Below are positions 51,192 to 64,000 of a DNA stretch of 64,000 nt, in pieces. The notes beneath the pieces are model-generated. The model saw only the letters and a list, made by a program, of their open reading frames with translations. It did not search any database and was not told where the DNA came from. This stretch comes from Parcubacteria group bacterium Gr01-1014_8 (GTDB lineage: Bacteria; Patescibacteriota; Minisyncoccia; Phycocordibacterales; UBA2100). The stretch's first letter is position 1. Each line of letters begins with the position of its first letter. The stretch lies in NCBI GenBank assembly GCA_007376385.1, contig VMGC01000001.1, positions 224,001-288,000 of the forward strand, read 5' to 3'. Made by a program: the position numbers and the translations under genes.

Positions 51192-52820
51192 ATGCACGTC
51201 GATCAGAATAATCCGGACCGTCGTGTCACCTATTTTGCGTCCACCCATACGCGCGGCCAGCGCGAGCTTTTTGGCATTCGTGGGGAGGATCGAGGCAAGC
51301 ATATATACCTCATTGGAAAGACCGGTATGGGCAAGTCGACCCTGATGGAGAATATGGCAATTCAGGACATACAGAATGGCGAGGGCATCTGTTTTATCGA
51401 CCCGCACGGAGCAACAGCAGAAAAACTTCTCGACTTTGTACCCTACGAGCGCATCAAGGATGTCGTGTATTTTGCGCCATTTGATACCGATTACCCGTTC
51501 GGCTTTAACGTGATGGAGGACGTAGGGTATGACAAACGCCATCTTGTCGTTTCAGGACTCATCGGTGCGTTCAAGCGTATCTGGGTAGATATGTGGAGTG
51601 CTCGGATGGAATACATCCTCCAGAATACTCTCCTTGCACTTCTTGAATACCCCGACGCAACGCTCCTCGACGTGAATCGGATGCTCTCGAACAAAGAATT
51701 TCGGAAAGCGGTGATCGAGAAGATCTCGGACCCTATCGTCAAAACATTCTGGAAAGAAGAATTTGCGACCTACACCGACCGTTATACGCAAGAGGCGACG
51801 CCCGCGATACAAAACAAGGTCGGTCAATTCACTGCGAACCCGTTGGTGCGCAATATTGTGGGACAGCCAAAATCATCATTTGACCTGCGAAAGATGATGG
51901 ATGAGAAAAAGATATTCATTATCAACCTCTCGAAAGGAAGAATGGGCGAGTCGAACGCGTCGCTTCTGGGCAGCATGCTTACGGTAAAGATCTATCTCGC
52001 TGCCATGTCGCGCGCAGACGAACCCGCCTCGCGTCTCGCACAATTGCCGCGCGTCTATTTCTATGTTGATGAGTTCCAATCGATGATGAATGAGGCTTTT
52101 GCCGACATCCTTTCCGAGTCGCGAAAATATAAACTTGCGCTCACTCTCGCGAACCAATACATCGAACAGATGGAAGAAAATGTGCGTAACGCGGTTTTTG
52201 GCAACGTGGGAACGTTGATAGCGTTCCGTGTCGGCCCGTTTGACGCGGAAGTGTTAAAGACGATTTTCGAGCCGACATTCACGCCAGAGGATCTTGTGGG
52301 ATTAGGCGTTGGCCACATCTATTTGACGCTCATGATAGATGGAGTCGGTTCACAGCCTTTTTCTGCGGAGACGATACCTCCCATAGACTTGCCTTCTGTC
52401 TCGTATCGGCAAGATGTCGTGCATTATTCGCGGGCAACATACGGGCGTCCTCGGGCGGAAATGGAGACGCTTGTATTGAAGCGGCAGGAGGATTTTGCGC
52501 CGCTTTCCAAACAGGACAGGAAGAAGGCGCAAGCGGCAAAAAGGCCGGATGAGGCGGAGATGCCACATAGAGAGGAGGGTTCGAGTGCGGATCGCGCCGC
52601 CTTGCGTGCGGCATTAAGTGCGGCCAAGACAGAGGCGCCGAACATGAATGGCAAGACGCCAATTGAGATCCTTCGCGCACGCAAGGCGGCGAAGGAAGCG
52701 CGCTCATCGCACGGCGCTGATGCACAATCGCCTCCAAAGGCGGCGCAGCAGGAACAGCGAGAAGGAGAAATATCACCGGAAGTGCTGCAAAGGATCCTTC
52801 GCGGCAACGATCCAGTATGA
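51192..52820 (+). CDS. Soluble TraD/VirD4-like P-loop ATPase (FtsK/HerA superfamily, DUF87/TraG-D_C-type) with a low-complexity Lys/Ala-rich tail
   Basis: Walker A YLIGKTGMGKST...FIDPHG and Walker B VYFYVDEFQ. There are no N-terminal TM helices. The C-terminal ~120 aa are K/A/E-rich. Confidence 0.55.
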   Translation: MHVDQNNPDRRVTYFASTHTRGQRELFGIRGEDRGKHIYLIGKTGMGKSTLMENMAIQDIQNGEGICFIDPHGATAEKLLDFVPYERIKDVVYFAPFDTDYPFGFNVMEDVGYDKRHLVVSGLIGAFKRIWVDMWSARMEYILQNTLLALLEYPDATLLDVNRMLSNKEFRKAVIEKISDPIVKTFWKEEFATYTDRYTQEATPAIQNKVGQFTANPLVRNIVGQPKSSFDLRKMMDEKKIFIINLSKGRMGESNASLLGSMLTVKIYLAAMSRADEPASRLAQLPRVYFYVDEFQSMMNEAFADILSESRKYKLALTLANQYIEQMEENVRNAVFGNVGTLIAFRVGPFDAEVLKTIFEPTFTPEDLVGLGVGHIYLTLMIDGVGSQPFSAETIPPIDLPSVSYRQDVVHYSRATYGRPRAEMETLVLKRQEDFAPLSKQDRKKAQAAKRPDEAEMPHREEGSSADRAALRAALSAAKTEAPNMNGKTPIEILRARKAAKEARSSHGADAQSPPKAAQQEQREGEISPEVLQRILRGNDPV

Positions 52821-53764
52821 TTCCGCAGAGAACTCTGTTGTTATCAATAGCAGCGTTGTTTGTTCCGGGTGCTGTGTCCGCGCAAGTCGTCATTACCGAA
52901 TTGATGTACGACCTTTCTGAGGGCTCTGATACAGGGCGCGAATGGATAGAAGTATGGAATAGCGGAACAGAGCCCATAGAGCTTACAAACTGGAAGTTGT
53001 TAGAAGCGAATACGAACCATGGCATAAACGCAGTAGGAACTGAAACGCTGGCCCCCGGCGAGTATGCAGTTATCGCTGACAATCCGGCAAAATTTAAAAA
53101 CGATTGGCCTTCTTTTTCGGGAATATTATTTGATTCTTCTTTTTCTCTGAATAATGCCGGTGAACAGTTGATTCTGCGTTGCTGTGGAAAAGAGCTAAGC
53201 GATAAGGATTCGGTGACGTATTCGAGCGAGTGGGGAGGTGCGGGAGACGGCGCGTCGCTCGCGAAAAGCGGTTCATCGTTCATTGCGGCGCAGCCTTCGC
53301 CGGGCTCGGGCTCAGTTGTTGCATTTGCTGTTCCTGAACCTGAATTGCGGTCAGAACCGCCACCTCAACAAAAAGCAGTACAGCAAGAAATTGCAAAGAA
53401 ATCGGAACCGGACAATAAAGAGAGTCCCGCACAAGATCCGAGCGCGGATGTTGCTTCGCAAGTTACAACAGCTCCATCTGTGCAAAAACAAGATGAGGCT
53501 CCAAAAAAGATAGCAAAGAAAACCACCCCTTCTGCTCAAAAAGACCCCGTGCAGAATTCTGAAGAGGAGGTCATTGTTGAGGCCACCGATACAAAGGGCG
53601 TAATAAGCGATAGCAATCAGGCCGCTGCGGTAGCGAGCACGGAAACGAATAACGTGATGTGGTGGGGAGGAGCAGTCACGCTTACAGCCCTCGGGGCAGG
53701 GGCAGTAGTCTTTCTACAGCGAAGCAGAAAAAAGGAATGGGATATTGTTGAGGAAAAAGAGTAG
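52817..53764 (+). CDS. Lamin-tail-domain (LTD) surface protein with signal peptide and C-terminal TM anchor
   Basis: Signal peptide, VVITELMYDLSEGSDTGREWIEVWNSGTEPIELTNWKL...APGEYAVIA (LTD signature), an acidic/low-complexity linker and a C-terminal hydrophobic helix. The start overlaps the ATPase stop. Confidence 0.7.
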   Translation: MIPQRTLLLSIAALFVPGAVSAQVVITELMYDLSEGSDTGREWIEVWNSGTEPIELTNWKLLEANTNHGINAVGTETLAPGEYAVIADNPAKFKNDWPSFSGILFDSSFSLNNAGEQLILRCCGKELSDKDSVTYSSEWGGAGDGASLAKSGSSFIAAQPSPGSGSVVAFAVPEPELRSEPPPQQKAVQQEIAKKSEPDNKESPAQDPSADVASQVTTAPSVQKQDEAPKKIAKKTTPSAQKDPVQNSEEEVIVEATDTKGVISDSNQAAAVASTETNNVMWWGGAVTLTALGAGAVVFLQRSRKKEWDIVEEKE

Positions 53765-53908: not shown

Positions 53909-54784
53909 ATGGAAATGCGAAATACAGAGAGGAAAACGATCCTCGTTACGGGAGGCGCGGGATTTGTCGGCTCGCATTTGTGCCGTAGGCTTGTGAGAGA
54001 TGGTCACAAAGTCATTTCGCTCGACAACTACTTCACTGGCTCGAAAGAAAATCATGTCGAGGGCGTTGAGTATCGAGAAGGACACACGAAGGATATCGAG
54101 GAGCACGTTACAGAAACACCCGACCTCATCTATCATCTCGGCGAATATTCCCGTGTTGAGATAAGTTTGAATGAGCCTGCGCTCGTGTGGGATCTGAACA
54201 AAGCCGGCACCTTCGGCGTTCTTGAGTTTTGGCGCAAGAAAGGCTGCAAGCTGGTGTATGCAGGCTCGTCGACGAAATTCGGCGACGGCGGGATGGGTCG
54301 CGACCAAAGTCCGTATGCATGGACGAAGGCGTCGAATACTGAACTTACAAGAAACTACGGTGCTTGGTACAAGCTGCCGTATGCCATCACATATTTCTAC
54401 AATGTGTATGGCCCCGGAGAGAGGGCGGGGGCGTATGGAACTCTTATCGAGATATTCAGACAAAAATTCTTGAAGAAAGAACCATTGACCGTGGTTGCAC
54501 CGGGAACGCAAAAAAGGAACTTCACGTATATCGACGATATTATCGAGGGATTAGTCCTGGTCGGCGAAAAAGGAGAAGGAGATGATTTTGGGCTTGGCGA
54601 TGTGCGGGAATATTCGGTGCTTGAGATCGCAAAGATGTTCGGCGGCCCTGTCGAAATGCTCCCGACCAGGGCCGGGAATCGCATGAGCTCTTCTGTTGAT
54701 ACGTCAAAAGCATCAGCCATCGGATGGAGCGTCAAGCACAGCGTCGAGGACTACATCAAGAACATTATCTCTGCGGGAACATGA
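53909..54784 (+). CDS. NAD-dependent epimerase/dehydratase, UDP-glucuronate decarboxylase (UXS)-like
   Basis: ILVTGGAGFVGSHL Rossmann motif, and SLDNYFTGSKENH typical of UXS/ArnA-type decarboxylases. Confidence 0.7.
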   Translation: MEMRNTERKTILVTGGAGFVGSHLCRRLVRDGHKVISLDNYFTGSKENHVEGVEYREGHTKDIEEHVTETPDLIYHLGEYSRVEISLNEPALVWDLNKAGTFGVLEFWRKKGCKLVYAGSSTKFGDGGMGRDQSPYAWTKASNTELTRNYGAWYKLPYAITYFYNVYGPGERAGAYGTLIEIFRQKFLKKEPLTVVAPGTQKRNFTYIDDIIEGLVLVGEKGEGDDFGLGDVREYSVLEIAKMFGGPVEMLPTRAGNRMSSSVDTSKASAIGWSVKHSVEDYIKNIISAGT

Positions 54785-54825: not shown

Positions 54826-56094
54826 ATGGAGAAAGAAAATGAAGCTCATTCCTCTGAATCGAAGGGTATATCTCATGGGGTGAAGCGCGTTTTAATTTTC
54901 TCCCTAGGATATTTTCCGAATGCCGTCGGGGGCGCAGAAGTCGCTATCAAAGAGATAACGCAGCGCATTCCAGATATCGAGTTCCACATGGTGACGAATC
55001 GCTACGATTCGACACTGCCGAAGGTAGAGAAAATCGGCAGCATACTCGTACACCGCATCGGCATCAGTTCGAAGAGGCCTTCGATAGCTGATCTGCGCCG
55101 GTGGCCGCTGCACCTCAACAAATTTTTGTATCAATTTCTTGCAGCGTGGAAAGCGATCAAGCTCCATCGAACATATAAGTACGATGCACTGTGGGCGATG
55201 ATGGCGCATTCATGCGGCGTGCCAGCCGCGATATTCAAAATGAGGAATATGGATGTGCCCTACGTGCTAACGCTCCAAGAAGGTGATCCGCCTGCCTATA
55301 TTGAGAGAAAGATGTGGCTTCTGTGGCCCTTCTTCAAACGAGCGTTTACCTCGGCCGATATCGTTCAGGCGATCTCGACGTTTCTTGGAAAATGGGCGAC
55401 GCACCGCGGCTTCAAAGGACCCTTGGAAATAATTCCAAATGCAGTTGATATTCAGCATTTTTCCGAAGAACCGCCGCTGTATTTGGTGAATGAAATAAAA
55501 GATGGACTCAGTAAGAGAATGGGGGACGTATTTGTGATAACAACGTCGCGTTTGGTACATAAGAATGCCGTGGACGATGTCATTCGAGCGCTTCCGAAAC
55601 TCCAAGAGAATGTGAAGTTCATTATTCTCGGCGTCGGACCGGACGAAGCTAAACTAAAAAAACTGGCGAAAGATCTGAATGTCGCGAAGCGGGTTCAATT
55701 TGTGGGGCAAGTGAGCCATGCCGATTTGCCTAAATATTTGAAGGCGTGCGATATTTTTATCCGTCCGTCGCGCTCTGAAGGCATGGGCAACTCCTTTGTT
55801 GAAGCGATGGCGGTGGGGCTACCGGTCGTCGCAACACAAGAAGGCGGCATTGCCGATTTTCTATTCGACGAGCGTAGGGATCCCGATAAGCCAGTGACGG
55901 GGTGGGCAGTGGACAAGGATTCGCCGGAACAAATAGTGCTTACGATAAAGGAGATCATCTCGCGGCCGGAAAAAGTGCGCGCGGTAGTCGCGACGGCGCG
56001 GGAGACGGTGAAAGAGAAGTATGATTGGGATATTATCGCGGGCGATATGTGGGAGAAAGTGTTTGCGAGATTGTTTGAAGTTCGCTCGAAATGA
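54826..56094 (+). CDS. Glycosyltransferase family 4 (GT-B)
   Basis: C-terminal GT4 signature EGMGNSFVEAMAVGLPVVAT. Confidence 0.8.
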   Translation: MEKENEAHSSESKGISHGVKRVLIFSLGYFPNAVGGAEVAIKEITQRIPDIEFHMVTNRYDSTLPKVEKIGSILVHRIGISSKRPSIADLRRWPLHLNKFLYQFLAAWKAIKLHRTYKYDALWAMMAHSCGVPAAIFKMRNMDVPYVLTLQEGDPPAYIERKMWLLWPFFKRAFTSADIVQAISTFLGKWATHRGFKGPLEIIPNAVDIQHFSEEPPLYLVNEIKDGLSKRMGDVFVITTSRLVHKNAVDDVIRALPKLQENVKFIILGVGPDEAKLKKLAKDLNVAKRVQFVGQVSHADLPKYLKACDIFIRPSRSEGMGNSFVEAMAVGLPVVATQEGGIADFLFDERRDPDKPVTGWAVDKDSPEQIVLTIKEIISRPEKVRAVVATARETVKEKYDWDIIAGDMWEKVFARLFEVRSK

Positions 56095-56363: not shown

Positions 56364-57503
56364 ATGCGCATTCTTATCGCGACAGGAATTTTTGAACCTG
56401 AAGCGGGCGGGCCAGCGACATACACGCCCAAAATAGCGGCAAAACTGGTCCAAGCGGGCAATGAAGTTACAGTTATTACTTATTCTGATAAGAAAAAACA
56501 CGATCTTGACTCAAGATATCCCTTTCGGTTGATACGAGTCGTTCGAGGAAAATACAAGCTCGCGAATTATTATTCTTTCTTTCGAGCAGTCTCGCCGGAA
56601 TTGGTTGGAGTAGATGTCACGTATAGCCTGGATTGGATAGCTGCGGGCCTCCCTCTCACTCTTGCAGCGATGATAAAGAATATCCCTGTCGTCATCCGCG
56701 TGGGCGGGGATTACATTTGGGAAAAATATCTGCAGTCCGGCGGGTCTCCGATGCCTCTTGCCGAGTTCAATGAACGCGGCCTGTATAAACATCAAAGAAT
56801 ACTTTTTTGGATAATTATCGTCGTATTGAGGCGCGCGTTCGTCGTGTTCAACAGCGATGCGGAGCGGGATATGTACCGCCGCTTGTATGGTCTACGAGAG
56901 GAGAGGACCGGCGTCATACACAATCCTATGCCGGAGAAGGGTTGGCTAGGAGTTGTGCGTGAGAAACCGAACAATGAACTGGTGTTTGCGGGGCGATTCA
57001 TAGCGATGAAAAACATCACGTCGCTCCTTGCGGCATATGCGACGGCGCGCACTCCATTTCGTCTTGTGCTGATGGGAGAAGGTCCGGAAGAACAGAGGAT
57101 ACGAGGGGCTATCAAAGCGCTAAAGCTCGAAGAAAAGGTATCTATATATCCGCCCATGAGGCAGCAAGAACTTTTTGAAAGGATAAAGAATTCTCGTGCG
57201 CTTGTGTTGCCGAGCTGGACTGATATTGCCCCGAACCAAGTCAGTGAAGCCATCGCGCTCGGCATTCCGATCCTTGTTACCAAAGAGAATTTTCTCGTCT
57301 TTAGAGACCAATTGCCAGACATGCTCGACCCGGCATCCGTCGAAGACATCCGCCAAAAACTGGAAATGCTTGCTGACGAGATGAGGTACCAGAGTTTTGC
57401 CGAGAAGTGCCGTCGCATTGAATTTAAGAATAGTTGGGACGATGTCGTTACGAAGCATCTTGGTGTTTTTGGGCACGTACTTTCGAAGGGCACGCGTCAT
57501 TGA
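56364..57503 (+). CDS. Glycosyltransferase family 4 (GT-B)
   Basis: MRILIATGIFEPEAGGPAT N-terminus typical of GT4. Confidence 0.8.
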   Translation: MRILIATGIFEPEAGGPATYTPKIAAKLVQAGNEVTVITYSDKKKHDLDSRYPFRLIRVVRGKYKLANYYSFFRAVSPELVGVDVTYSLDWIAAGLPLTLAAMIKNIPVVIRVGGDYIWEKYLQSGGSPMPLAEFNERGLYKHQRILFWIIIVVLRRAFVVFNSDAERDMYRRLYGLREERTGVIHNPMPEKGWLGVVREKPNNELVFAGRFIAMKNITSLLAAYATARTPFRLVLMGEGPEEQRIRGAIKALKLEEKVSIYPPMRQQELFERIKNSRALVLPSWTDIAPNQVSEAIALGIPILVTKENFLVFRDQLPDMLDPASVEDIRQKLEMLADEMRYQSFAEKCRRIEFKNSWDDVVTKHLGVFGHVLSKGTRH

Positions 57504-57542: not shown

Positions 57543-59513
57543 ATGCGCATCTTAAGTATTTCCAGTGATTGGAACGTCTTTAGTGAAGACAGTGCCGTCG
57601 CGAGACGCCAGCGTCTGCAGGCTTCAACCGTAGAGCGGTTCGATGTGTTCATGCCGCATGGGCCCGACGAGACCATTCATATCGCAGGAAACGGGACCAT
57701 GCGCGGGTTTGGTCCCGGCAAATTGCGAGGCATGTTTCGCATGTTATGGTCCGCATTCAGGATGCAAAGACCGGATATCGTTTCTTCACAAGACCCATTC
57801 TTTCTAGGACTTCTTGCCTGGAAGATCGCAAAAGTGCGGGGAGCAAAACTGCATATACAGATACACACCGATCTTTTTGACCCGCATTTTGCAGCGCATT
57901 CTTTCACCAATCGAATTCGATTGCTGCTCGCGCGTTTCGTTCTCTCGCAAGCAGATTGCGTTCGCGTCGTGTCGGAGCGCATTAAGCGCTCATTGGATAA
58001 ATTGCATCTTCGTGTCCCGGTTTCTGTTCTTCCGGTTTTTATTGATGCGGAGGTCATTGACGCGGCGCAACCTTTGCAGAAACGCAGCGTATATCCCGAT
58101 TTCGAGAAAATAATTCTAGTCGTCAGCAGACTCGAGCCGGAAAAGAATGTTACTGCCGCCCTTCGCGCTCTGCCGGACATATTGAAAGCGCAGCCGGGCA
58201 CCGGGCTCGTCATCGTCGGCGATGGCTCTTTGCGCGAGCAGCTCGAACGTCTTGCGAAAGAGCTCGGCATTGAGAAACGCGTTGCTTTTGCAGGCTCTAC
58301 AAAGCCATATCCATACTACAAAGCTTCAGATCTATTACTTTCGACCTCTGATTACGAAGGATATGGGATGGTGGTGGTAGAAGCGCTCTATGCAGGATGT
58401 CCTGTCATCTCGTTCGATACTGGCGTCGCTCGCGAAGCAGGTGCCATAATCGTGACTCCAGAGGTTCTTGCGAGCACTGCGGCTGCCACGTTATCAGAAG
58501 GCCGCCGTGGGAAACTCGCTTTTACTTTGCCGAGCGAACAGGAATATCGTGACCTATGGCACTCACAGATCGCGCTTACGCTGGCACTGAAGAGTTCTGC
58601 CTCCGCGCCAAAAGCGGCATCGAGAAAGGCGTTGAAAATAGGTTTTATCGGGCAAGGCTTCATCGGCAAGAATTACGCGGATGACCTCGAGCGACGCGGT
58701 ATCTCGGTCACACGGTATGCTCTCGAAGAACCGTATCGGCAAAATAAAGACAAGATAAAAGATCGCAACATCGTTTTCATTGCCGTTCCAACACCGACCA
58801 CACCGAAAGGGTTCGACTATTCGATTGTGCGAGAGGCTGTCGGTCTTGTCGGGAAGGGAAGTGTTGCCGTCATCAAATCCACGCTTGCCCCGGGCACGAC
58901 AGAAAAGATACAGAAAGAATTCCCGGGCGTCATCGTGATGCACTCTCCCGAATTTCTGCGGGAAGCAACGGCGGCGTTTGATGCTGCGAGACCGGATAGG
59001 AATGTCATCGGGCTTGCCATCGATTCGCCCGAGAACAGAGAGCGTGCAAAGGACGTTCTTTCCATTCTGCCGTCTGCTCCGTTCGAGCTCATTTCAACGT
59101 CGAGAGAAGCGGAACTTATTAAGTACGCGGGGAATGCGTGGCTGTATATGAAAGTCGTATACGCGAATATGCTGTACGACCTTTCAGAGCGTTTGCATAT
59201 CAATTATCAAAGCGTGCGAGAGGGTCTTGCCGCGGACCCGCGCGTTGGAAGGTCGCACCTAGATCCGATCCACGCCAGCGGGCATCCTGGAGCTAATCCG
59301 GGTCGTGGGGCGGGAGGTCACTGTTTCATCAAAGATTTTGCCGCACTTCGCATGGAGTATGAGCAAGCTTTGCCGGATGATACTGCCGGAATCGCAGCCT
59401 TCCGTAAACTCGAGGAGAAAAATGTGCAGCTGCTTCTTGAGAGCGACAAAGACCTCGAACTCCTGCGCGGTGTATACGGAGATGAACTAGAGAATTTCCG
59501 AAGGAAGAAATAA
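57543..59513 (+). CDS. Fusion protein: N-terminal GT4 glycosyltransferase plus C-terminal UDP-glucose/GDP-mannose dehydrogenase-like domain
   Basis: Residues 1-330: GT4 (EGYGMVVVEALYAGCPVIS). Residues ~345-656: KIGFIGQGFIGKNYADDL NAD-binding, IVFIAVPTP, STLAPGTT, and catalytic-Cys motif GAGGHCFIKD (compare UGDH GGSCFxKD). Only ~65 aa follow the Cys, so the C-terminal UDP-binding domain looks truncated. Confidence 0.65.
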   Translation: MRILSISSDWNVFSEDSAVARRQRLQASTVERFDVFMPHGPDETIHIAGNGTMRGFGPGKLRGMFRMLWSAFRMQRPDIVSSQDPFFLGLLAWKIAKVRGAKLHIQIHTDLFDPHFAAHSFTNRIRLLLARFVLSQADCVRVVSERIKRSLDKLHLRVPVSVLPVFIDAEVIDAAQPLQKRSVYPDFEKIILVVSRLEPEKNVTAALRALPDILKAQPGTGLVIVGDGSLREQLERLAKELGIEKRVAFAGSTKPYPYYKASDLLLSTSDYEGYGMVVVEALYAGCPVISFDTGVAREAGAIIVTPEVLASTAAATLSEGRRGKLAFTLPSEQEYRDLWHSQIALTLALKSSASAPKAASRKALKIGFIGQGFIGKNYADDLERRGISVTRYALEEPYRQNKDKIKDRNIVFIAVPTPTTPKGFDYSIVREAVGLVGKGSVAVIKSTLAPGTTEKIQKEFPGVIVMHSPEFLREATAAFDAARPDRNVIGLAIDSPENRERAKDVLSILPSAPFELISTSREAELIKYAGNAWLYMKVVYANMLYDLSERLHINYQSVREGLAADPRVGRSHLDPIHASGHPGANPGRGAGGHCFIKDFAALRMEYEQALPDDTAGIAAFRKLEEKNVQLLLESDKDLELLRGVYGDELENFRRKK

Positions 59514-59517
59514 GTAC

Positions 59518-60669
59518 TTGCCCCGTGAGATAACTCACTCAGCGATGAATTCTAAATCTAGTATGAGTCATGATACGTCGAATGAGGAGGGAATGCGGAC
59601 CGGACTATCTCATGGGGTAAACCTACTCGTATGCGCGCAGACGGTAGATATTAAAGATCCGTTCAATGGCTTTTTTGTCGAATGGCTCCGAGAAATGTCG
59701 AGTCATTTTTCCAGCGTCCACGTCATCAGCCTCTCTGCCGGCGAATATTATCTTCCTTCAAATGTCCGAGTTCTCTCTCTTGGAAAGGAATCGGTGAGAG
59801 GTCCGCGCTTTGTCGTACGGTTCCGCTACATCTGGCTCTTACTTCAATACAGCTGGTCTCTGCGCCGTGAATACGATTCAGTGTTCGTGCATCAAAGTCA
59901 GGAGTTTATATTAAGCGCAGGATTTCTGTGGGCGCTTCTTCGAAAGCCTGTGTACCTGTGGCGCAATCACTATGCAGGAAATATCCTCACCGATATCGCC
60001 GCATACTTTTCGCGAAAGGTTTTCTATACCTCACATTTTTCCTATACCGCAAAATACAAGCATTCGGTTGCCATGCCTGTCGGTGTCGATGTTGAACAAT
60101 TCGCCCCAGGAGGGGATGTTGAGCGTAGAGCGCGTTCTATTCTTTTCCTTGGTCGCATCACACCTTCCAAGCGTCCGCATATGTTGCTTGAAGCGTTGTC
60201 GATAGTGCAGAAAAAGTCGATTTCTTTCAAAGCATCTCTCTACGGCTCATACCTTCCTTCCGATAGTACATATCGCGAGGAGCTTATTCAGAAAGTGAAT
60301 ACATCTGCTTTGAAAGACAGTGTCACATTTCATGAGGGGATACCGCACAAAGATGTGCCGCGTGTTTTCAATCAGTTCGAGCTGTACGTGAATCTTGCGC
60401 AAAGCGGGATGCTCGATAAGACGATATTTGAAGCCGCGGCATGCGGCGCGGTTCCGTTAACTGCGAGCAAGGACTATGCAGACATGGCAGGGGAACAATT
60501 TCTTTTTGAGAATGCAGAGGACCTCGCGAAGAAACTTGAACAATTCTTGGGAATGCCAGAAAACAAAAAAGACGAACTTCGTTCGCGCATTCGCGCTCTT
60601 GTCGTGCAAAAACACTCGCTCAAAGAATTGGGTCGTCTGCTCTCTGTTCAGATGGTTGCGTTGAATTGA
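59518..60669 (+). CDS. Glycosyltransferase family 4-like
   Basis: FLGRITPSKRPHML... and FEAAACGAVPLTAS (E-x7-E-like GT4 C-terminal motif). Confidence 0.6.
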   Translation: MPREITHSAMNSKSSMSHDTSNEEGMRTGLSHGVNLLVCAQTVDIKDPFNGFFVEWLREMSSHFSSVHVISLSAGEYYLPSNVRVLSLGKESVRGPRFVVRFRYIWLLLQYSWSLRREYDSVFVHQSQEFILSAGFLWALLRKPVYLWRNHYAGNILTDIAAYFSRKVFYTSHFSYTAKYKHSVAMPVGVDVEQFAPGGDVERRARSILFLGRITPSKRPHMLLEALSIVQKKSISFKASLYGSYLPSDSTYREELIQKVNTSALKDSVTFHEGIPHKDVPRVFNQFELYVNLAQSGMLDKTIFEAAACGAVPLTASKDYADMAGEQFLFENAEDLAKKLEQFLGMPENKKDELRSRIRALVVQKHSLKELGRLLSVQMVALN

Positions 60670-60803: not shown

Positions 60804-61793
60804 ATGTTGGACAAAAAAACTATCGTCGTAACTGGAGGTTTAGGGCATATTGGCTCGCGCCTTATCCGTTCGTTCGGCTCCACTGTGAATGAGATACGGA
60901 TAGTTGATAACCTCGCAACACAGCGATACCCCTCACTCTTTGATTTGCCCGAAACACCGCGAGTCCGATTTTATGAGGAGGATATTCTGACGGCGAATCT
61001 CGGAGAGATTTTCAAAGGTGCTGATGTAGTGGTGCATCTCGCGGCGATTACGAATGCTGAAGCGACTGTCGGGAAAGAGGAAGAAACAGAGGCGGTGAAT
61101 TTTGAAGGCTTGAAACGCGTTGCTGACGCGTGCGAAAAGACAGGAGCCAAGCTCATTTTTCCCTCGACGACCAGTGTGTACGGCAGTCAGGAAGCAGTTG
61201 TCGACGAGACGTGCGCAGACCTTCAGCCTCAAAGCCCATATGCTGTCTCAAAATTGAAGGCAGAGGAATACCTGACGGGGAAGCGCGGAACGGGCTTAAA
61301 GTTCGTCACTCTCCGACTCGGTACAATATTCGGCTGGTCAGTGGGAATTCGTTTTCATACGGCAGTCAATAAATTTATCTGGCAGGCGGTGAACGGGAAG
61401 GAGATAACGGTCTGGAAGACAGCGTGGGAACAGAAGCGCCCATATCTCGATCTTGGTGACTGTGTCCGCGTATTTAATCATGTCATCGAGAGTGACCGAG
61501 CGTCGAGCGAGGAAATACTGAGCGCAGCAGCGCGAACGTACGATTTGTTCGACGGAGAGATATACAATGTCGTCACGAAGAATTTTACCGTGCGCGACGT
61601 TGTCGAAGGCATTCAGAAATTTGTTCCCTCGCTTCGCGTCAAATACGTTGATTCAAAGATAATGAACCAGCTGTCTTATGATGTAGTCGCCGACAAAATT
61701 GCAAGCAAAGGGTTTGTGCCAAAAGGAGACCTTAGTGTTGCGATAGGAGAGACAATCGATAAATTAAAAACGATTGTACGCACTTCAAATTAA
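60804..61793 (+). CDS. NAD-dependent sugar epimerase/dehydratase
   Basis: Start at ATG 60804 (MLDKKTIVVTGGLGHIGSRL). Has the YAVSK catalytic YxxxK. The listed ORF from 60666 is an upstream extension. Confidence 0.7.
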   Translation: MLDKKTIVVTGGLGHIGSRLIRSFGSTVNEIRIVDNLATQRYPSLFDLPETPRVRFYEEDILTANLGEIFKGADVVVHLAAITNAEATVGKEEETEAVNFEGLKRVADACEKTGAKLIFPSTTSVYGSQEAVVDETCADLQPQSPYAVSKLKAEEYLTGKRGTGLKFVTLRLGTIFGWSVGIRFHTAVNKFIWQAVNGKEITVWKTAWEQKRPYLDLGDCVRVFNHVIESDRASSEEILSAAARTYDLFDGEIYNVVTKNFTVRDVVEGIQKFVPSLRVKYVDSKIMNQLSYDVVADKIASKGFVPKGDLSVAIGETIDKLKTIVRTSN

Positions 61794-61796
61794 CGT

Positions 61797-62972
61797 ATGC
61801 GAATACCTCTCAAACCAGTCATCGATTTTGGGAGAATGCCAATCGCAAATGCTTTTCTTGCCCCTGGACAATTCGAGGGTGAATATTTTTTCGATATGGT
61901 GGTCGGGTACGATGCCGAAACCGATGCCATCGGATTAGTGAACACCGTTCCGCCGGAGAAAATGTTCCACGAGAACTACGCGTTCTTTTCATCCACTTCA
62001 AAAGGAATGCAAAAGCATTTTTGCGAGACTGCGGAAAAACTGAAACCTCTTGCCGGGAGCGGAATTGTGGTTGAGATGGGGAGTAACGATGGCATCATGT
62101 TGGATGCATGGAAAGATCTAGGCGTGCGGGCGATAGGGGTCGAGCCTTCTAAGAATGTTGCCGCGGCGGCGCGAGCGCGCGGCCACAAGGTCATAACAGA
62201 GTTCATGAGCGAAAAGGTGGCAGACGAAATACTTTCGAGTGGAGAAGTGTCGTTCGTGTTTGGCGCGAATGTCTCGTGCCATATCGAGGATATAGAAACG
62301 TATTTCAAAAGCATTGCGAAGCTCATAGGAAAAAAGGGCGTGTTCGTTTTTGAAGACCCGTATTTTCTCGATATCGTCGAAAAGACATCCTACGACCAAG
62401 TCTACGATGAGCACGTTTGGTATTTCACGATCTCGTTCATCAACAAAATGTTTGCACCTCTTGGATATCATGTTTTTGACTGCGAGCATGTTCTTGTGCA
62501 TGGGGGAGAGTTGCGCATGTATGTGGGGCACAAAGACACACATACCGTGAAGTCAGTCGTTGAGGAATGGCAGAAGAAAGAAACCGACCTCCCTCAAAAA
62601 CTTGAACTCCTAAAGGCGAATATTCTTCTATCGAAGAGTCGTATGCGGGAGCTCCTCGTTGGTCTCAAGAAAGACGGGAAGAGAATGTGCGGGTTTGGCG
62701 CATCCTCAAAAGGAGTCATCGTATGTAATTTTTGCGAGATAGGTCCTGATTTAATTCCTTTCATCACGGATAACACGCCCGCAAAGCAGGGAAAATACTA
62801 CCCAGGGGTTCATATACCGGTTCGTCCGCAGGAAGAATTCAAAGATGTTGATGTTGCGGTGCTTTTTGCGTGGAACCATCTTGTCGAGATAGAAAAACTG
62901 CCTCTTATTCAGGAATTTCGTAAGGCAGGAGGGAAATTGGTCACGCACGTACCTGAGCCACATCTTTTCTAG
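61797..62972 (+). CDS. NDP-sugar C-methyltransferase (TylCIII/NovU-like class I SAM methyltransferase with C-terminal C-methyltransferase domain)
   Basis: The N-terminal LKPVIDFGRMPIANAF element resembles the substrate-binding N-terminus of sugar 3-C-methyltransferases. SAM motif VVEMGSNDGIML. C-terminal domain as in that family. Confidence 0.65.
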   Translation: MRIPLKPVIDFGRMPIANAFLAPGQFEGEYFFDMVVGYDAETDAIGLVNTVPPEKMFHENYAFFSSTSKGMQKHFCETAEKLKPLAGSGIVVEMGSNDGIMLDAWKDLGVRAIGVEPSKNVAAAARARGHKVITEFMSEKVADEILSSGEVSFVFGANVSCHIEDIETYFKSIAKLIGKKGVFVFEDPYFLDIVEKTSYDQVYDEHVWYFTISFINKMFAPLGYHVFDCEHVLVHGGELRMYVGHKDTHTVKSVVEEWQKKETDLPQKLELLKANILLSKSRMRELLVGLKKDGKRMCGFGASSKGVIVCNFCEIGPDLIPFITDNTPAKQGKYYPGVHIPVRPQEEFKDVDVAVLFAWNHLVEIEKLPLIQEFRKAGGKLVTHVPEPHLF

Positions 62973-62992
62973 AGGTACGCTATCATGGCTCT

Positions 62993-63721
62993 ATGACGAA
63001 GATTCTGGTTACGGGTGGTTCCGGTCTGCTCGGCGGACATATTCTCGCCCTCGAGTCTTCGCTCATTTCGCCATCTCATTCGGAGATGGATATCACTGAT
63101 AAGGCGAGCGTCGAAATGGCTTTTGATAAATATCAGCCTGATACAGTGCTTCATCTTGCCGCCGCGACGAAGCCCCCAGAACATGAGAAAACACCCGCGA
63201 TCGGTATTGAGAACAACATCATAGGGACAGCGAATGTCGCGCTCGCGGCACTGAAAAGAAACGTCCGAATGGTCTACACCTCAACCGACTACTTATATAG
63301 CGGGAAAGGACCGCATACAGAGAACGAGCCTATGCTCCCGCCGTATAAATTTGCGTGGTCAAAGCTTGGAGGAGAATCTTGTGTTGCGCTTTTGCCAAAC
63401 AGTTTGATCCTTCGTCTGTCGTTCGGTCCTAGGCCTTTTCCATGGGAGAAAGTGTACAAAGACCAATTGAATTCGAAATTGTATGTGGATGAGATAGCGC
63501 CGCTCGTGCTTGCTCTAGCTCAAGGCAGTGAAGTGGGTATTATGAACGTCGGCGGTCCCCGAAATACGCTCGAGGAATATGCGCGGCGTACCAAGCCCAA
63601 TATCGAAACGATTGAAAAGCCTGAATGGGTGCCAGCGGATACGAGCCTCGATATTTCACGTATGTGCGATGTTCTCGGCATTACAGATGCGCACACGCTT
63701 TTGAAACATTACATACTATGA
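62993..63721 (+). CDS. dTDP-4-dehydrorhamnose reductase (RmlD)-like NAD(P)-dependent reductase
   Basis: ILVTGGSGLLGG N-terminus. Fits the RmlD substrate-binding-domain family in size and pattern. Confidence 0.65.
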   Translation: MTKILVTGGSGLLGGHILALESSLISPSHSEMDITDKASVEMAFDKYQPDTVLHLAAATKPPEHEKTPAIGIENNIIGTANVALAALKRNVRMVYTSTDYLYSGKGPHTENEPMLPPYKFAWSKLGGESCVALLPNSLILRLSFGPRPFPWEKVYKDQLNSKLYVDEIAPLVLALAQGSEVGIMNVGGPRNTLEEYARRTKPNIETIEKPEWVPADTSLDISRMCDVLGITDAHTLLKHYIL

Positions 63722-64000
63722 TAGATGGCGTACACATAAAAAATATAGTTCGGCACAACGACGAGCGCGGCTATTTTGCGGAGCTGATGAAAAAAGGGGA
63801 GCCGGGTTACCACGAGATAGCGCAGACAAGTTACGCTCTGACACTGCCAGGAGTTATCAAAGCATTCCACTTTCATGATTACTCTGAAACGTGGGTCGTT
63901 GTTCGAGGGAGCGCGCAAATTGTTATGTACGATGGAAGGGAAAACTCCAAGACTAAGGGAGAGACACAGGTCATCGAAGCGGGGGAAGAAAACCCTATCG
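63718..64000 (+). CDS. dTDP-4-dehydrorhamnose 3,5-epimerase (RmlC, cupin)-like, N-terminal part (continues past window end)
   Basis: ATG at 63718 overlaps the rmlD-like stop (ATGA). Translation MIDGVHIKNIVRHNDERGYFAELMK... carries the RmlC D-x-RG-x-F-x-E motif. The gene is not in the ORF track because it is truncated by the window edge. Confidence 0.55.
   Translation, partial: MIDGVHIKNIVRHNDERGYFAELMKKGEPGYHEIAQTSYALTLPGVIKAFHFHDYSETWVVVRGSAQIVMYDGRENSKTKGETQVIEAGEENPI

Follow-up and report, generated by a model that had tools for sequence, protein, structure and literature searches.

The Fdt and Qdt enzyme sets (rmlA, rmlB, fdtA/qdtA, fdtB/qdtB, fdtC/qdtC) produce dTDP-Fuc3NAc and dTDP-Qui3NAc for S-layer and O-antigen glycans. 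FdtA belongs to the family of dTDP-4-keto-6-deoxyhexose isomerases. Methyl-branched sugars are made by the EvaA-E enzymes, whose route to the dTDP-L-epivancosamine of chloroeremomycin has been summarised (PMC8987122), and by the systems that contain KijD1 (kijanose) and TcaB9 (tetronitrose). The pathway to virenose (6-deoxy-3-C-methylgulose) in the lipopolysaccharide of Coxiella burnetii, with the TylCIII-like CBU_0691, is predicted only (PMC3539893). In Campylobacter jejuni, Cj1427 is documented as a C4-dehydrogenase (PMC10680097).

The locus described here lies in a 64,000-nt stretch of DNA (the window) from Parcubacteria bacterium Gr01-1014_8, of the candidate phyla radiation (CPR). Four genes near its end are the first four of eight in a conserved pathway starting from dTDP-glucose. 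Its product is most likely a rare 6-deoxysugar with a methyl branch, probably an amino sugar, destined for a surface glycan. The sugar may be chemically rare, as the first-pass annotation had it, but the module of genes is a common one: CPR bacteria, DPANN archaea and about ten further phyla have it.

Organization of the locus

Open reading frames for a short-chain dehydrogenase-like protein (extended SDR, here SDR329), a C-methyltransferase, an RmlD-like protein and an RmlC-like cupin were confirmed (Table 1), with Pfam and PDB E-values well outside the range of chance. The genes had been described as tightly coupled by ATGA overlaps; this is true of the RmlD-like/cupin junction (63718-63721), but SDR329 and the methyltransferase are separated by a 3-nt gap, and the methyltransferase and the RmlD-like gene by 20 nt. 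No terminator-like site was found on the + strand of the window beyond 60358, so that a single transcription unit is plausible for the four genes.

Table 1. Coordinates and family matches of the genes in the window
Feature	Coordinates	Strand	Family match
Extended SDR, 291 aa, first gene of the glycan cluster	53909..54784	+	PF01370 E=9e-44
GT4 glycosyltransferase (context)	54826..56094	+	PF00534 E=3e-37
GT4 glycosyltransferase (context)	56364..57503	+	PF00534, PF13439
GT4 glycosyltransferase fused to truncated UDP-glucose-dehydrogenase-like module (context)	57543..59513	+	PF00534, PF03721, PF00984
GT4 glycosyltransferase immediately upstream of SDR329, same cluster	59545..60669	+	PF00534 E=7e-13
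SDR329, extended SDR, 329 aa	60804..61793	+	PF01370 E=7e-36
NDP-hexose C-methyltransferase, TcaB9/KijD1/EvaC type, zinc-less variant, 391 aa	61797..62972	+	PF08484 E=4e-35, partial PF08421
Short RmlD-like SDR, 242 aa	62993..63721	+	PF04321 E=4e-24
RmlC-like cupin, first 94 of 148 codons in the window	63718..64000	+	PF00908, PF14667

Upstream, a UXS-like decarboxylase and four GT4 genes had been noted. The SDR and the four GT4-domain genes are present, but GalE (4zrm) and human UXS1 (2b69) tie at about 5e-30 in the PDB search with this SDR, so UXS-like is just one possible reading of what appears to be a UXS/GalE-like protein. The two halves of the fused GT4 gene are separate genes in relatives. 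The start of the last GT4 gene was taken from the gene call on an identical contig.

The cupin gene ends 164 nt beyond the window. The full protein (148 aa) was read from positions 10726-11172 of contig L001, which is 100% identical to the window (0 mismatches over 11,008 nt). The gene order past the cupin, taken from an overlapping same-sample contig and from five syntenic relatives, is an FdtA-type 3,4-ketoisomerase, a C3-type DegT aminotransferase, and then convergent rmlB and rmlA, which lie about 2-4 kb beyond the window. Both genes for which a search had been suggested are thus present. The same-sample Logan contig carries FdtA (PF05523), DegT, RmlB and an RmlA-like gene, and the start of its reverse complement is identical over 28 nt to the end of the window-identical contig. 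The two source contigs would be adjacent, a placement made by this overlap and synteny and not by read-through sequence. RmlB (P0249) is encoded on the 407,897-bp contig of the same MAG that carries the methyltransferase, and it adjoins an RmlA-like nucleotidyltransferase; it scores 413 bits against the dTDP-glucose 4,6-dehydratase model TIGR01181 (NCBIfam equivalog cut-off 365) and has the motif HISTDEVYG. The eight-gene order is repeated in loci L003, L004, L083 and L085/86, and partly in L084. A scan of the window and of neighbouring genes revealed no 2,3-dehydratase.

The four proteins

The methyltransferase matches solved sugar 3-C-methyltransferases over its full length: KijD1 (5t64) at E=2e-91 and TcaB9 (3ndi) at E=3e-85. 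The MtmC-type enzyme 4rv9 (mycarose-type) is a weaker match (E=2.5e-57) than these amino-sugar enzymes, although the closeness to KijD1 and TcaB9 may just mirror which family members have solved structures. Y61, H162, Y203, E205 and H206 are the counterparts of the TcaB9 active site; all residues checked are kept, and they are invariant. Judged by its sequence, the protein truly belongs to the NDP-hexose C-methyltransferase family, in agreement with its earlier assignment as TylCIII/NovU-type, and it does not fall in with non-sugar methyltransferases. All four zinc cysteines have been lost in this clade: they are missing from the CPR orthologues (30/30) and present in the others (44/44). With rmlB and rmlA nearby, the family membership makes a dTDP-linked, C-methyl-branched 6-deoxyhexose a sound prediction, and the branched 6-deoxyhexose proposed earlier is supported.

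Counted from ATG 60804, the Rossmann motif of SDR329 starts at residue 7, and the identical Logan contig has its gene call at this same ATG, although the mechanical reading frame opens at TTG 60666. GxxGxxG and YxxxK are present. The protein had been called an NAD-dependent epimerase/dehydratase; it is an extended SDR, but a dehydratase is ruled out, as STTSVYG stands where 4,6-dehydratases have TDE. Its scores are far under every NCBIfam equivalog cut-off. The closest solved protein is 6vo6 (E=9e-25), which we take to be Cj1427, a C4-dehydrogenase forming a 4-keto sugar with no 6-deoxygenation; C4-epimerases come next. Matches to RmlD-type proteins are at about 1e-9, compared to 1e-25 for the C4-oxidising enzymes. 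In related loci this subfamily (53 members, 45-75% identity) nearly always adjoins the methyltransferase. We propose a dehydrogenase/epimerase-like role, supplying the keto group for the methyltransferase, with 4-ketoreductase as the alternative; SDR329 may just as well be a simple 4-ketoreductase or 4-epimerase.

The RmlD-like reductase of the first-pass annotation has the fold but not the complete catalytic site. The PF04321 match is confined to the N-terminal half (profile positions 2-149 of 287), and TIGR01214 gives 82.9 bits where the cut-off is 224. The protein retains the Rossmann motif, Ser/Thr and Lys, but the catalytic Tyr is replaced by Phe120, which is invariant in all 21 sequences compared and stands opposite the Tyr in each of three independent alignments. 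The C-terminal domain has a deletion of about 45 residues. The final reduction would therefore be without a clearly competent enzyme, unless this step falls to SDR329.

The cupin was previously called an RmlC-like 3,5-epimerase. The cupin family is borne out (PF00908 E=2e-8 on the fragment in the window), but the full-length protein scores 44.6 bits with TIGR01221 (E=1e-11), far under the RmlC equivalog threshold of 155.75. The His of the HxH motif and the Tyr are kept; the RmlC Lys and C-terminal Asp region are not.

Linkage to the aminotransferase

The nearest solved relatives of the DegT aminotransferase are all C3-aminotransferases. With the enzyme of the close relative L003 as proxy for the source enzyme, the aminotransferases of L003, other CPR loci and non-CPR loci all place 7b0d, DesV (2oga), QdtB (3frk) and 5u1z at the top, and C4-aminotransferases are 30-60 orders of magnitude worse. 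The C3-type family occurs in 62 of 79 methyltransferase-related loci; in most non-CPR loci the two genes are adjacent and often overlap. Within 10 kb, most non-CPR loci lack a TDE-type dehydratase. Many CPR loci keep the SDR, methyltransferase, RmlD-like protein and aminotransferase, with no FdtA within reach; these would need a different route to the C3 keto group.

Proposed pathway and alternatives

An amino sugar is favoured because the methyltransferase, the C3-type aminotransferase and SDR329 co-occur across many phyla. With FdtA also in the block, the neutral, mycarose/virenose-like chemistry suggested earlier is less likely than a 3-amino-3,6-dideoxy-3-C-methylhexose. We infer the following order of reactions. 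RmlA and RmlB, as assigned by family, would make dTDP-4-keto-6-deoxy-D-glucose, FdtA would shift the keto group to C3, where the DegT enzyme would install an amino group. SDR329 would then regenerate the 4-keto group, a role for which its C4-oxidising relatives speak; to our knowledge, no enzyme oxidises C4 of an NDP-3-amino-3,6-dideoxyhexose, and this counts against the route. Via an enolate, the methyltransferase would add a methyl group at C3, the reaction that TcaB9, KijD1 and EvaC carry out with 3-amino-4-keto sugars; the cupin would epimerise a neighbouring centre, and an SDR would reduce C4. The adjacent GT4 enzymes would transfer the sugar from dTDP-3-amino-3,6-dideoxy-3-C-methylhexose to a cell-surface glycan. 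This is the epivancosamine (EvaA-E) logic minus 2-deoxygenation. We give the whole route a tentative probability of about 0.45. All eight genes have a place in it, with no spare function and no N-acyltransferase left over.

Nearer to the first-pass annotation, two sugars might be drawn from one shared intermediate. dTDP-4-keto-6-deoxyglucose would be methylated at C3 (or C5), epimerised by the cupin and reduced at C4 by SDR329 or the RmlD-like protein, giving a neutral dTDP-6-deoxy-3-C-methylhexose of the nogalose-precursor or virenose type; separately, FdtA and the aminotransferase would give dTDP-3-amino-3,6-dideoxy-galactose or -glucose. Every characterised C-methyl sugar pathway that we know of pairs the methyltransferase with a dedicated 4-ketoreductase, and such pairing would account for SDR329 as an almost constant partner, with no new chemistry needed. 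rmlA, rmlB, fdtA and the aminotransferase are the standard Fuc3N/Qui3N set, and in locus L031, which has the methyltransferase, RmlD-like protein and cupin, no aminotransferase follows within 8 kb downstream. For a TylCIII-type enzyme serving the cell envelope, Coxiella virenose offers a precedent (PMC3539893). We nevertheless consider two sugars somewhat unlikely: one SDR would have no role, no N-acyltransferase for a 3-amino sugar was found in about 23 kb, SDR329 is nearer to C4-oxidising enzymes than to RmlD-type ketoreductases, the aminotransferase would be left without substrate in loci that lack FdtA, and its retention with the methyltransferase across about ten phyla would be hard to explain.

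A single amino sugar of other regiochemistry would account for the methyltransferase-aminotransferase linkage without an extra oxidation. If the 4-keto sugar were methylated at C3 and then transaminated at C4, a route with natural-product and mycobacterial precedents, the product would be a 4-amino-4,6-dideoxy-3-C-methylhexose (kansosamine/sibirosamine type), but FdtA and both SDRs would be left unused. Methylation at C4 or C2, beside the 3-keto group made by FdtA, followed by C3 amination would use FdtA directly; both SDRs would again be idle, and the binding register would have to shift in a site that is residue-for-residue like that of TcaB9. As all three aminotransferase classes rank C3- far above C4-aminotransferases, we regard either variant as improbable. 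Least probable is a substrate other than a dTDP-6-deoxyhexose, with the UDP-glucose-dehydrogenase-like module and the UXS/GalE-like SDR supplying the methyltransferase with a UDP-4-keto-pentose or -uronate, to yield a branched pentose, or SDR329 oxidising a 6-hydroxy sugar like Cj1427. The presence of both genes in the cluster, the 6vo6 match and the scarcity of TDE-type dehydratases in non-CPR loci fit such a substrate, but the dehydrogenase-like module has no C-terminal UDP-binding domain, and a bona fide RmlB, RmlA-like protein and FdtA share the methyltransferase block here and in the five closest syntenic relatives.

Comparison with known systems

The RmlD-like protein and the cupin share folds and Pfam families with RmlD and RmlC of dTDP-L-rhamnose synthesis, but differ in their sub-threshold scores and, as described above, in catalytic residues and the truncated C-terminal domain. 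The C. jejuni GDP-heptose set follows the same logic of an SDR-made 4-keto group (Cj1427), a cupin epimerase (Cj1430) and an SDR reductase (Cj1428, at C4), but it acts on a GDP-linked heptose, has no methyltransferase or aminotransferase, and its match to SDR329 is distant. The predicted Coxiella virenose pathway likewise uses a TylCIII-family C-methyltransferase for an envelope glycan, alongside a nucleotidyltransferase, 4,6-dehydratase and reductase/epimerase (PMC3539893); it differs in its neutral, maybe GDP-based sugar and has no isomerase or aminotransferase.

With the Fdt/Qdt systems the cassette shares, in one block, the RmlA-like protein, RmlB and an FdtA-domain cupin with RGxHxH, and its aminotransferase is nearest to QdtB and DesV. 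It differs in having no N-acetyltransferase and four additional genes, those of the SDR, C-methyltransferase, RmlD-like protein and RmlC-like cupin. The EvaA-E pathway, with the related KijD1 and TcaB9 steps, resembles the cassette in the start from dTDP-4-keto-6-deoxy-D-glucose and in joint genes for an aminotransferase acting at C3, a C-methyltransferase acting at the same carbon (one family with that of the cassette, E=1e-85 to 1e-91, with a conserved active site), an epimerase of the cupin type and a reductase of the SDR type; the cassette methyltransferase, however, is zinc-less, and the reductase candidate has no catalytic Tyr. In place of the 2,3-dehydratase of EvaA-E, the cassette would reach the 3-amino-4-keto intermediate through FdtA and an oxidising SDR, so its sugar should keep the 2-OH, unlike the EvaA-E product. 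The cassette is also part of a CPR glycosyltransferase/exporter glycan cluster rather than an antibiotic cluster.

The cluster and its gene products

Genes of the glycan cluster within the window and on its reconstructed continuation (window coordinates unless stated)
Feature	Position	Strand	Family or other evidence
VirD4/TraD-like coupling ATPase (542 aa) and lamin-tail-domain protein (315 aa)	51192-53764	+	directly 5' of the glycan cluster
Extended SDR, upstream of the four genes	53909-54784		
GT4 glycosyltransferase fused to a UDP-glucose-dehydrogenase-like (UGDH-like) module, 656 aa	57543-59513	+	single ORF
Extended SDR (SDR329), 329 aa	60804-61793	+	PF01370, E=7e-36
C-methyltransferase, 391 aa	61797-62972	+	PF08484, E=4e-35; partial N-terminal PF08421
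RmlD-like protein, 242 aa	62993-63721	+	PF04321, E=4e-24
RmlC-like cupin	from 63718, cut by window end	+	PF00908
Spacer, 145 nt	~164-312 nt past window end (L001 11173-11202 and L087 12778-12925)		
FdtA, 143 aa	after the 145-nt spacer		PF05523, RGDHAH motif; similarity only
GIY-YIG ORF, 88 aa	~0.75-1.0 kb past window end (L087 12076-12342)	-	weak match to group I intron endonucleases
DegT aminotransferase, 366 aa	after the GIY-YIG ORF		
rmlB and rmlA	~2.1-3.8 kb beyond window end	opposite to cupin	

The predicted methyltransferase has a three-part architecture: a PF08421 N-terminal domain, a class I SAM fold and a PF08484 C-terminal domain. It scores 121 bits with PF08484, 48 bits with PF13489 and 32.3 bits with PF08421, the last just above the cut-off of 31.3 bits and spanning profile positions 9-62 only. 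Residues 7-390 match all three characterised relatives compared, each of them a PDB enzyme: KijD1 (5t64, E=2e-91), TcaB9 (3ndi, E=3e-85) and the MtmC-type D-mycarose enzyme (4rv9, E=2.5e-57). The active site of TcaB9, which we take to be Tyr76, His181, Tyr222, Glu224 and His225 (chain index offset +2), has its counterparts in Y61, H162, Y203, E205 and H206. Four of these five positions are conserved in 30/30 orthologues from the candidate phyla radiation (CPR) and in 43-44 of 44 other homologues; at the fifth, that of H162, His is found in 26/30 and 35/44, respectively (61/74 overall). This full-length match to solved 3-C-methyltransferases, with the active-site residues kept, bears out the first-pass annotation of a TylCIII-type sugar C-methyltransferase. 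All four zinc-site cysteines of the N-terminal domain, kept in 44/44 non-CPR homologues, are gone in 30/30 CPR orthologues; the window protein begins after the first CxxC, and the second is replaced by D39...T42. By every criterion testable on its sequence, the protein is predicted to be a sugar C-methyltransferase without the defining zinc site. Identities within the zinc-less CPR clade (the window and loci L003-L035) are 59-81%.

SDR329, the product of the first gene, has a normal YxxxK motif and carries STTSVYG in place of the TDE of 4,6-dehydratases; it scores 73 bits against TIGR01181 (dTDP-glucose 4,6-dehydratase, cut-off 365). A 4,6-dehydratase role was rejected, as the TDE motif is missing and a genuine RmlB is encoded close by. 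The best solved relative is 6vo6 (E=9e-25), presumably Cj1427, a GDP-heptose C4-dehydrogenase; C4-epimerases follow, and ketoreductases such as RmlD match at ~1e-9. The GDP-heptose C4-dehydrogenase function of Cj1427 has been described (PMC10680097).

The RmlD-like protein reaches 82.9 bits against the TIGR01214 equivalog, for which the cut-off is 224.05. Its Pfam match is confined to profile positions 2-149 of 287, and the C-terminal substrate-binding domain is incomplete, with ~45 residues missing relative to E. coli RfbD. The Rossmann motif (TGGSGLLG), STD and K124 are all conserved. The YxxxK site reads F120-A-W-S-K124, with Phe instead of the catalytic Tyr. Three independent alignments agree in placing F120 at the Tyr of E. 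coli RfbD, 9gpi and 3sc6, and the residue is present in 21/21 sequences of one comparison and invariant in 16/16 of another. With a profile of the orthologues, the matches to solved RmlD enzymes have E=2e-26 and those to MAT2B ~4e-18. The protein is thus assigned, from sequence, to the RmlD family, while departing from canonical RmlD in score, C-terminus and catalytic Tyr; of the label "RmlD-like reductase", the family name stands and the enzymatic term is called into question. Residue Y102 is invariant, and E. coli RfbD has Phe there; speculatively, it might compensate for the missing Tyr. MAT2B is the regulatory subunit of methionine adenosyltransferase, a curious match for a gene that adjoins a SAM-dependent methyltransferase gene.

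A Logan contig of run SRR8863434, identical to the window along 11,008 nt, completes the cupin, which is 148 aa long and has its stop 164 nt past the window end. The full protein scores 44.6 bits against TIGR01221 (RmlC, cut-off 155.75). It keeps the fold and the RmlC His (in an HxH motif, as in FdtA) and Tyr, but Thr, Ser, Val or Trp stands in place of the Lys and the C-terminal region with the Asp is absent, so that an "RmlC-like 3,5-epimerase" is recognizable in fold and only partly in catalytic residues. The RmlD-like protein and the cupin are probably Rml-like in fold only. The cupin also weakly matches the C-terminal region of CapF/WbcJ. A split CapF-type enzyme made up of the two proteins was rejected because the RmlD-like family profile finds only RmlD and MAT2B, not CapF; the likeness is kept only as an analogy.

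At the first two junctions of the four genes there are gaps of 3 and 20 nt, and at the third an ATGA overlap. The genes had been described as coupled by ATGA overlaps throughout, which is therefore incorrect for two of the three junctions. On the + strand the run is free of terminator-like sites. The four GT4-domain genes reported upstream of 60804 were found. The SDR encoded further upstream had been called a UXS-like decarboxylase; human UXS1 is among its best PDB matches, but a GalE matches equally well, so that this label is not established.

Two other features of the upstream region were observed. The UGDH-like module fused to a GT4 domain has N-terminal and central domains and a GGHCFIKD cysteine motif, without the C-terminal UDP-binding domain; the two parts are separate genes in the syntenic relatives L003, L083 and L085 (~354 aa and 297-303 aa). 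The lamin-tail-domain protein adjoins the cluster in L003 too.

Continuation past the window end

No homologues of E. coli K-12 RmlA, ManC or GalF were found in the window by tblastn, and the same search with RmlB and Gmd gave nothing closer than 28% identity. The closest relatives have the upstream glycosyltransferase genes in common, and their methyltransferases are 73-81% identical. In these relatives the cupin is followed by an FdtA-domain protein (PF05523, 2.7e-32 in L003), a DegT/DnrJ/EryC1 aminotransferase (4e-108) and convergent rmlB and rmlA. The same order is seen in the Pfam-annotated contigs L083 and L085/86, and partly in L084.

The source genome has its own dTDP-glucose 4,6-dehydratase, P0249, recovered by searching with the RmlB of a relative. 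It is encoded outside the window, on the same 407,897-bp contig as a protein 100% identical to the window's methyltransferase. It scores 413.4 bits against TIGR01181 (cut-off 365.1) and has the dehydratase motif HISTDEVYG. The Logan contig that carries it (L087) comes from the same sequencing run as the window-matching contig (L001) and contains rmlA, rmlB, DegT, the GIY-YIG ORF and FdtA; the first 28 nt of its reverse complement repeat the end of L001 exactly. No metagenome contig matched the junction sequence in an exact-match scan. From this overlap, the common run, the common genomic contig and the relatives' synteny, the most parsimonious order in the source is cupin, spacer, FdtA, GIY-YIG ORF and DegT, with rmlB and rmlA on the opposite strand. 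The RmlA-like product, a 255-aa PF00483 protein encoded next to rmlB, has TIGR01207 (rmlA) as its best family at 237.7 bits, against a cut-off of 360.65. The search for rmlA and rmlB past the window end that had been proposed thus yields an RmlB above the equivalog cut-off and an adjoining RmlA-like nucleotidyltransferase in the same genome; the absence of such genes, which would have counted against the prediction, is not observed. No FdtC/QdtC-type N-acyltransferase was found in any gene between 53909 and the window end or on the 12.9-kb continuation.

Downstream of rmlA (L087 1-9242) lie a Methyltransf_24 gene, a GT4 gene, an ABC exporter and a CTP_transf_3 cytidylyltransferase gene, and further on a GFO-family oxidoreductase and a Capsule_synth (PF05159) gene. 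Such a gene set is like that of ABC-transporter-dependent capsule loci, an unexpected likeness for a CPR bacterium.

The spacer between cupin and FdtA is bounded by an imperfect 21-nt inverted repeat and folds at -57.6 kcal/mol (z = -5.8). Both Logan contigs end within it; the cupin and FdtA genes of relatives directly adjoin or overlap each other. A repeated mobile element was considered for the hairpin and rejected, with no second copy in the DNA compared and no Rfam match. The GIY-YIG ORF occurs in the source organism only and is absent from the syntenic relatives.

Comparison across loci

The methyltransferase neighbourhood was compared in 79 loci from GTDB species representatives. A DegT family aminotransferase is encoded in 62/79 and the cupin family in 38/79; RmlA (12/79) and FdtA (10/79) are less frequent. 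By best BLAST match, 57 proteins are of the SDR329 type; a stricter subfamily has 53. SDR329 orthologues (45-75% identity) are encoded beside the methyltransferase at 53 loci that range from CPR bacteria to DPANN archaea, and SDR329 is the methyltransferase's most constant partner. The aminotransferase gene lies directly 3' of the methyltransferase gene in most non-CPR loci, often overlapping it. Three aminotransferase types were checked, from L003, other CPR loci and non-CPR loci. C3-aminotransferases (7b0d, DesV, QdtB, 5u1z) rank at the top for all three and C4-aminotransferases far lower; the L003 enzyme, a proxy for that of the source, is nearest to DesV (1e-93) and QdtB (3e-88). The window, the continuation and the recurrent neighbour families scanned across the 79 loci yielded no NDP-hexose 2,3-dehydratase. 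Large families among these neighbours are MurJ-like flippases, asparagine synthase-like proteins, ABC/Wzt proteins and methyltransferases. The other SDRs of the non-CPR operons do not have the TDE motif.

A compact operon recurs in non-CPR bacteria (L032-L081; e.g., L043 9965-15626). It encodes the methyltransferase, a C3-type aminotransferase, an HxH cupin, an SDR329 orthologue and two further non-dehydratase SDRs, usually with no RmlB-type dehydratase or FdtA within 10 kb. This suggests that the combination of methyltransferase, aminotransferase and SDR329 can begin from another starting compound.

Proposed pathway and alternatives

Enzymes of the TcaB9 type place a methyl group on the carbon beside a 4-keto group, and a C3-aminotransferase requires a 3-keto group. 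In the antibiotic pathways (EvaA-E) both carbonyls come from a 2,3-dehydratase (PMC8987122). In the cluster described here, FdtA and the C3-aminotransferase would yield a 3-amino-3,6-dideoxyhexose. This product would bear a 4-OH, so that methylation at C3 would need C4 to be re-oxidised. The natural candidate for this step is the conserved, C4-oxidiser-like SDR329. The methyltransferase would then place a methyl group at C3, and the cupin and an SDR, the latter presumably reducing C4, would complete the sugar. A single route through all eight genes to a dTDP-3-amino-3,6-dideoxy-3-C-methylhexose is given a probability of about 0.45. It would explain the linkage of methyltransferase, aminotransferase and SDR across phyla. 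Gene identities, conserved catalytic residues, synteny and the presence of RmlB and an RmlA-like protein are observed, while the order of substrates, the oxidising role of SDR329, the methylated position and the choice of C4 reductase are inferred.

The same genes could make two sugars, the neutral 6-deoxy-3-C-methylhexose of mycarose or virenose type proposed in the first-pass annotation and an independent Fuc3N or Qui3N. No new chemistry would be required, but one SDR would be idle, the N-acyltransferase is missing and the linkage in loci that have no FdtA would go unexplained; a pair of sugars is considered rather unlikely. A different regiochemistry, with a 4-amino-3-C-methyl product or methylation adjacent to a 3-keto group, is less probable again, being at odds with the aminotransferase type and leaving the SDRs idle. 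The substrate might even be something other than a dTDP-6-deoxyhexose, supplied by the UGDH-like and UXS-like genes; this conflicts with the adjacent RmlB, RmlA and FdtA and is considered very unlikely.

Beyond this cluster, the methyltransferase, the C3-type aminotransferase and SDR329 may, tentatively and with the odds somewhat against it, constitute a widespread undescribed module for non-2-deoxy 3-amino-3-C-methyl-6-deoxyhexoses of surface glycans, in which an epimerase-like SDR replaces the 2,3-dehydratase. That SDR would supply the second carbonyl, either by oxidising C3 or, once FdtA has acted and the amino group is in place, by re-oxidising C4. The CPR version of the module would be a remodelled one, in which the methyltransferase has no zinc site and the RmlD-like partner, coupled to a cupin, has Phe for Tyr. 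The genes concerned occur together in CPR bacteria, DPANN archaea, Planctomycetota, Nitrospirota, Elusimicrobia, Bdellovibrionota and others, including a Verrucomicrobiota MAG labelled Akkermansia muciniphila.

Significance and relation to known systems

CPR bacteria are thought to live attached to host cells, and surface sugars are therefore likely to be important for attachment and recognition. To our knowledge, there is no chemical knowledge of CPR surface glycans. The cluster predicts an unusual and specific building block, a C-methyl, probably amino, 6-deoxyhexose, and offers a complete enzyme set testable in vitro. If the single route to the 3-amino-3-C-methyl sugar is correct, it would represent a new way to a 3-amino-4-keto intermediate for sugar C-methylation, and "antibiotic-type" branched amino sugars would be common in the envelopes of uncultured bacteria and archaea. 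It would also provide enzymologists with two natural variants, a methyltransferase of the TcaB9 type that is free of zinc and an SDR in which Phe occupies the catalytic Tyr position. If two sugars are made, the cluster is an ordinary, though rare, deoxysugar cluster.

Synthesis of branched-chain deoxysugars from dTDP-glucose is a well-known type of pathway. Virenose of Coxiella is a proposed example of a branched deoxysugar in the cell envelope (PMC3539893). What is new here is the combination of genes without a 2,3-dehydratase, its wide spread in uncultured lineages and the two clade-specific enzyme variants; in a literature search pairing C-methyltransferase with CPR, the term C-methyltransferase was absent from the ranked results. 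The EvaA-E pathway to 3-amino-3-C-methyl sugars differs in having the 2,3-dehydratase. The Fdt/Qdt pathway differs in its N-acyltransferase, but its FdtA-type 3,4-ketoisomerase and C3-aminotransferase are both matched in this cluster, by similarity only.
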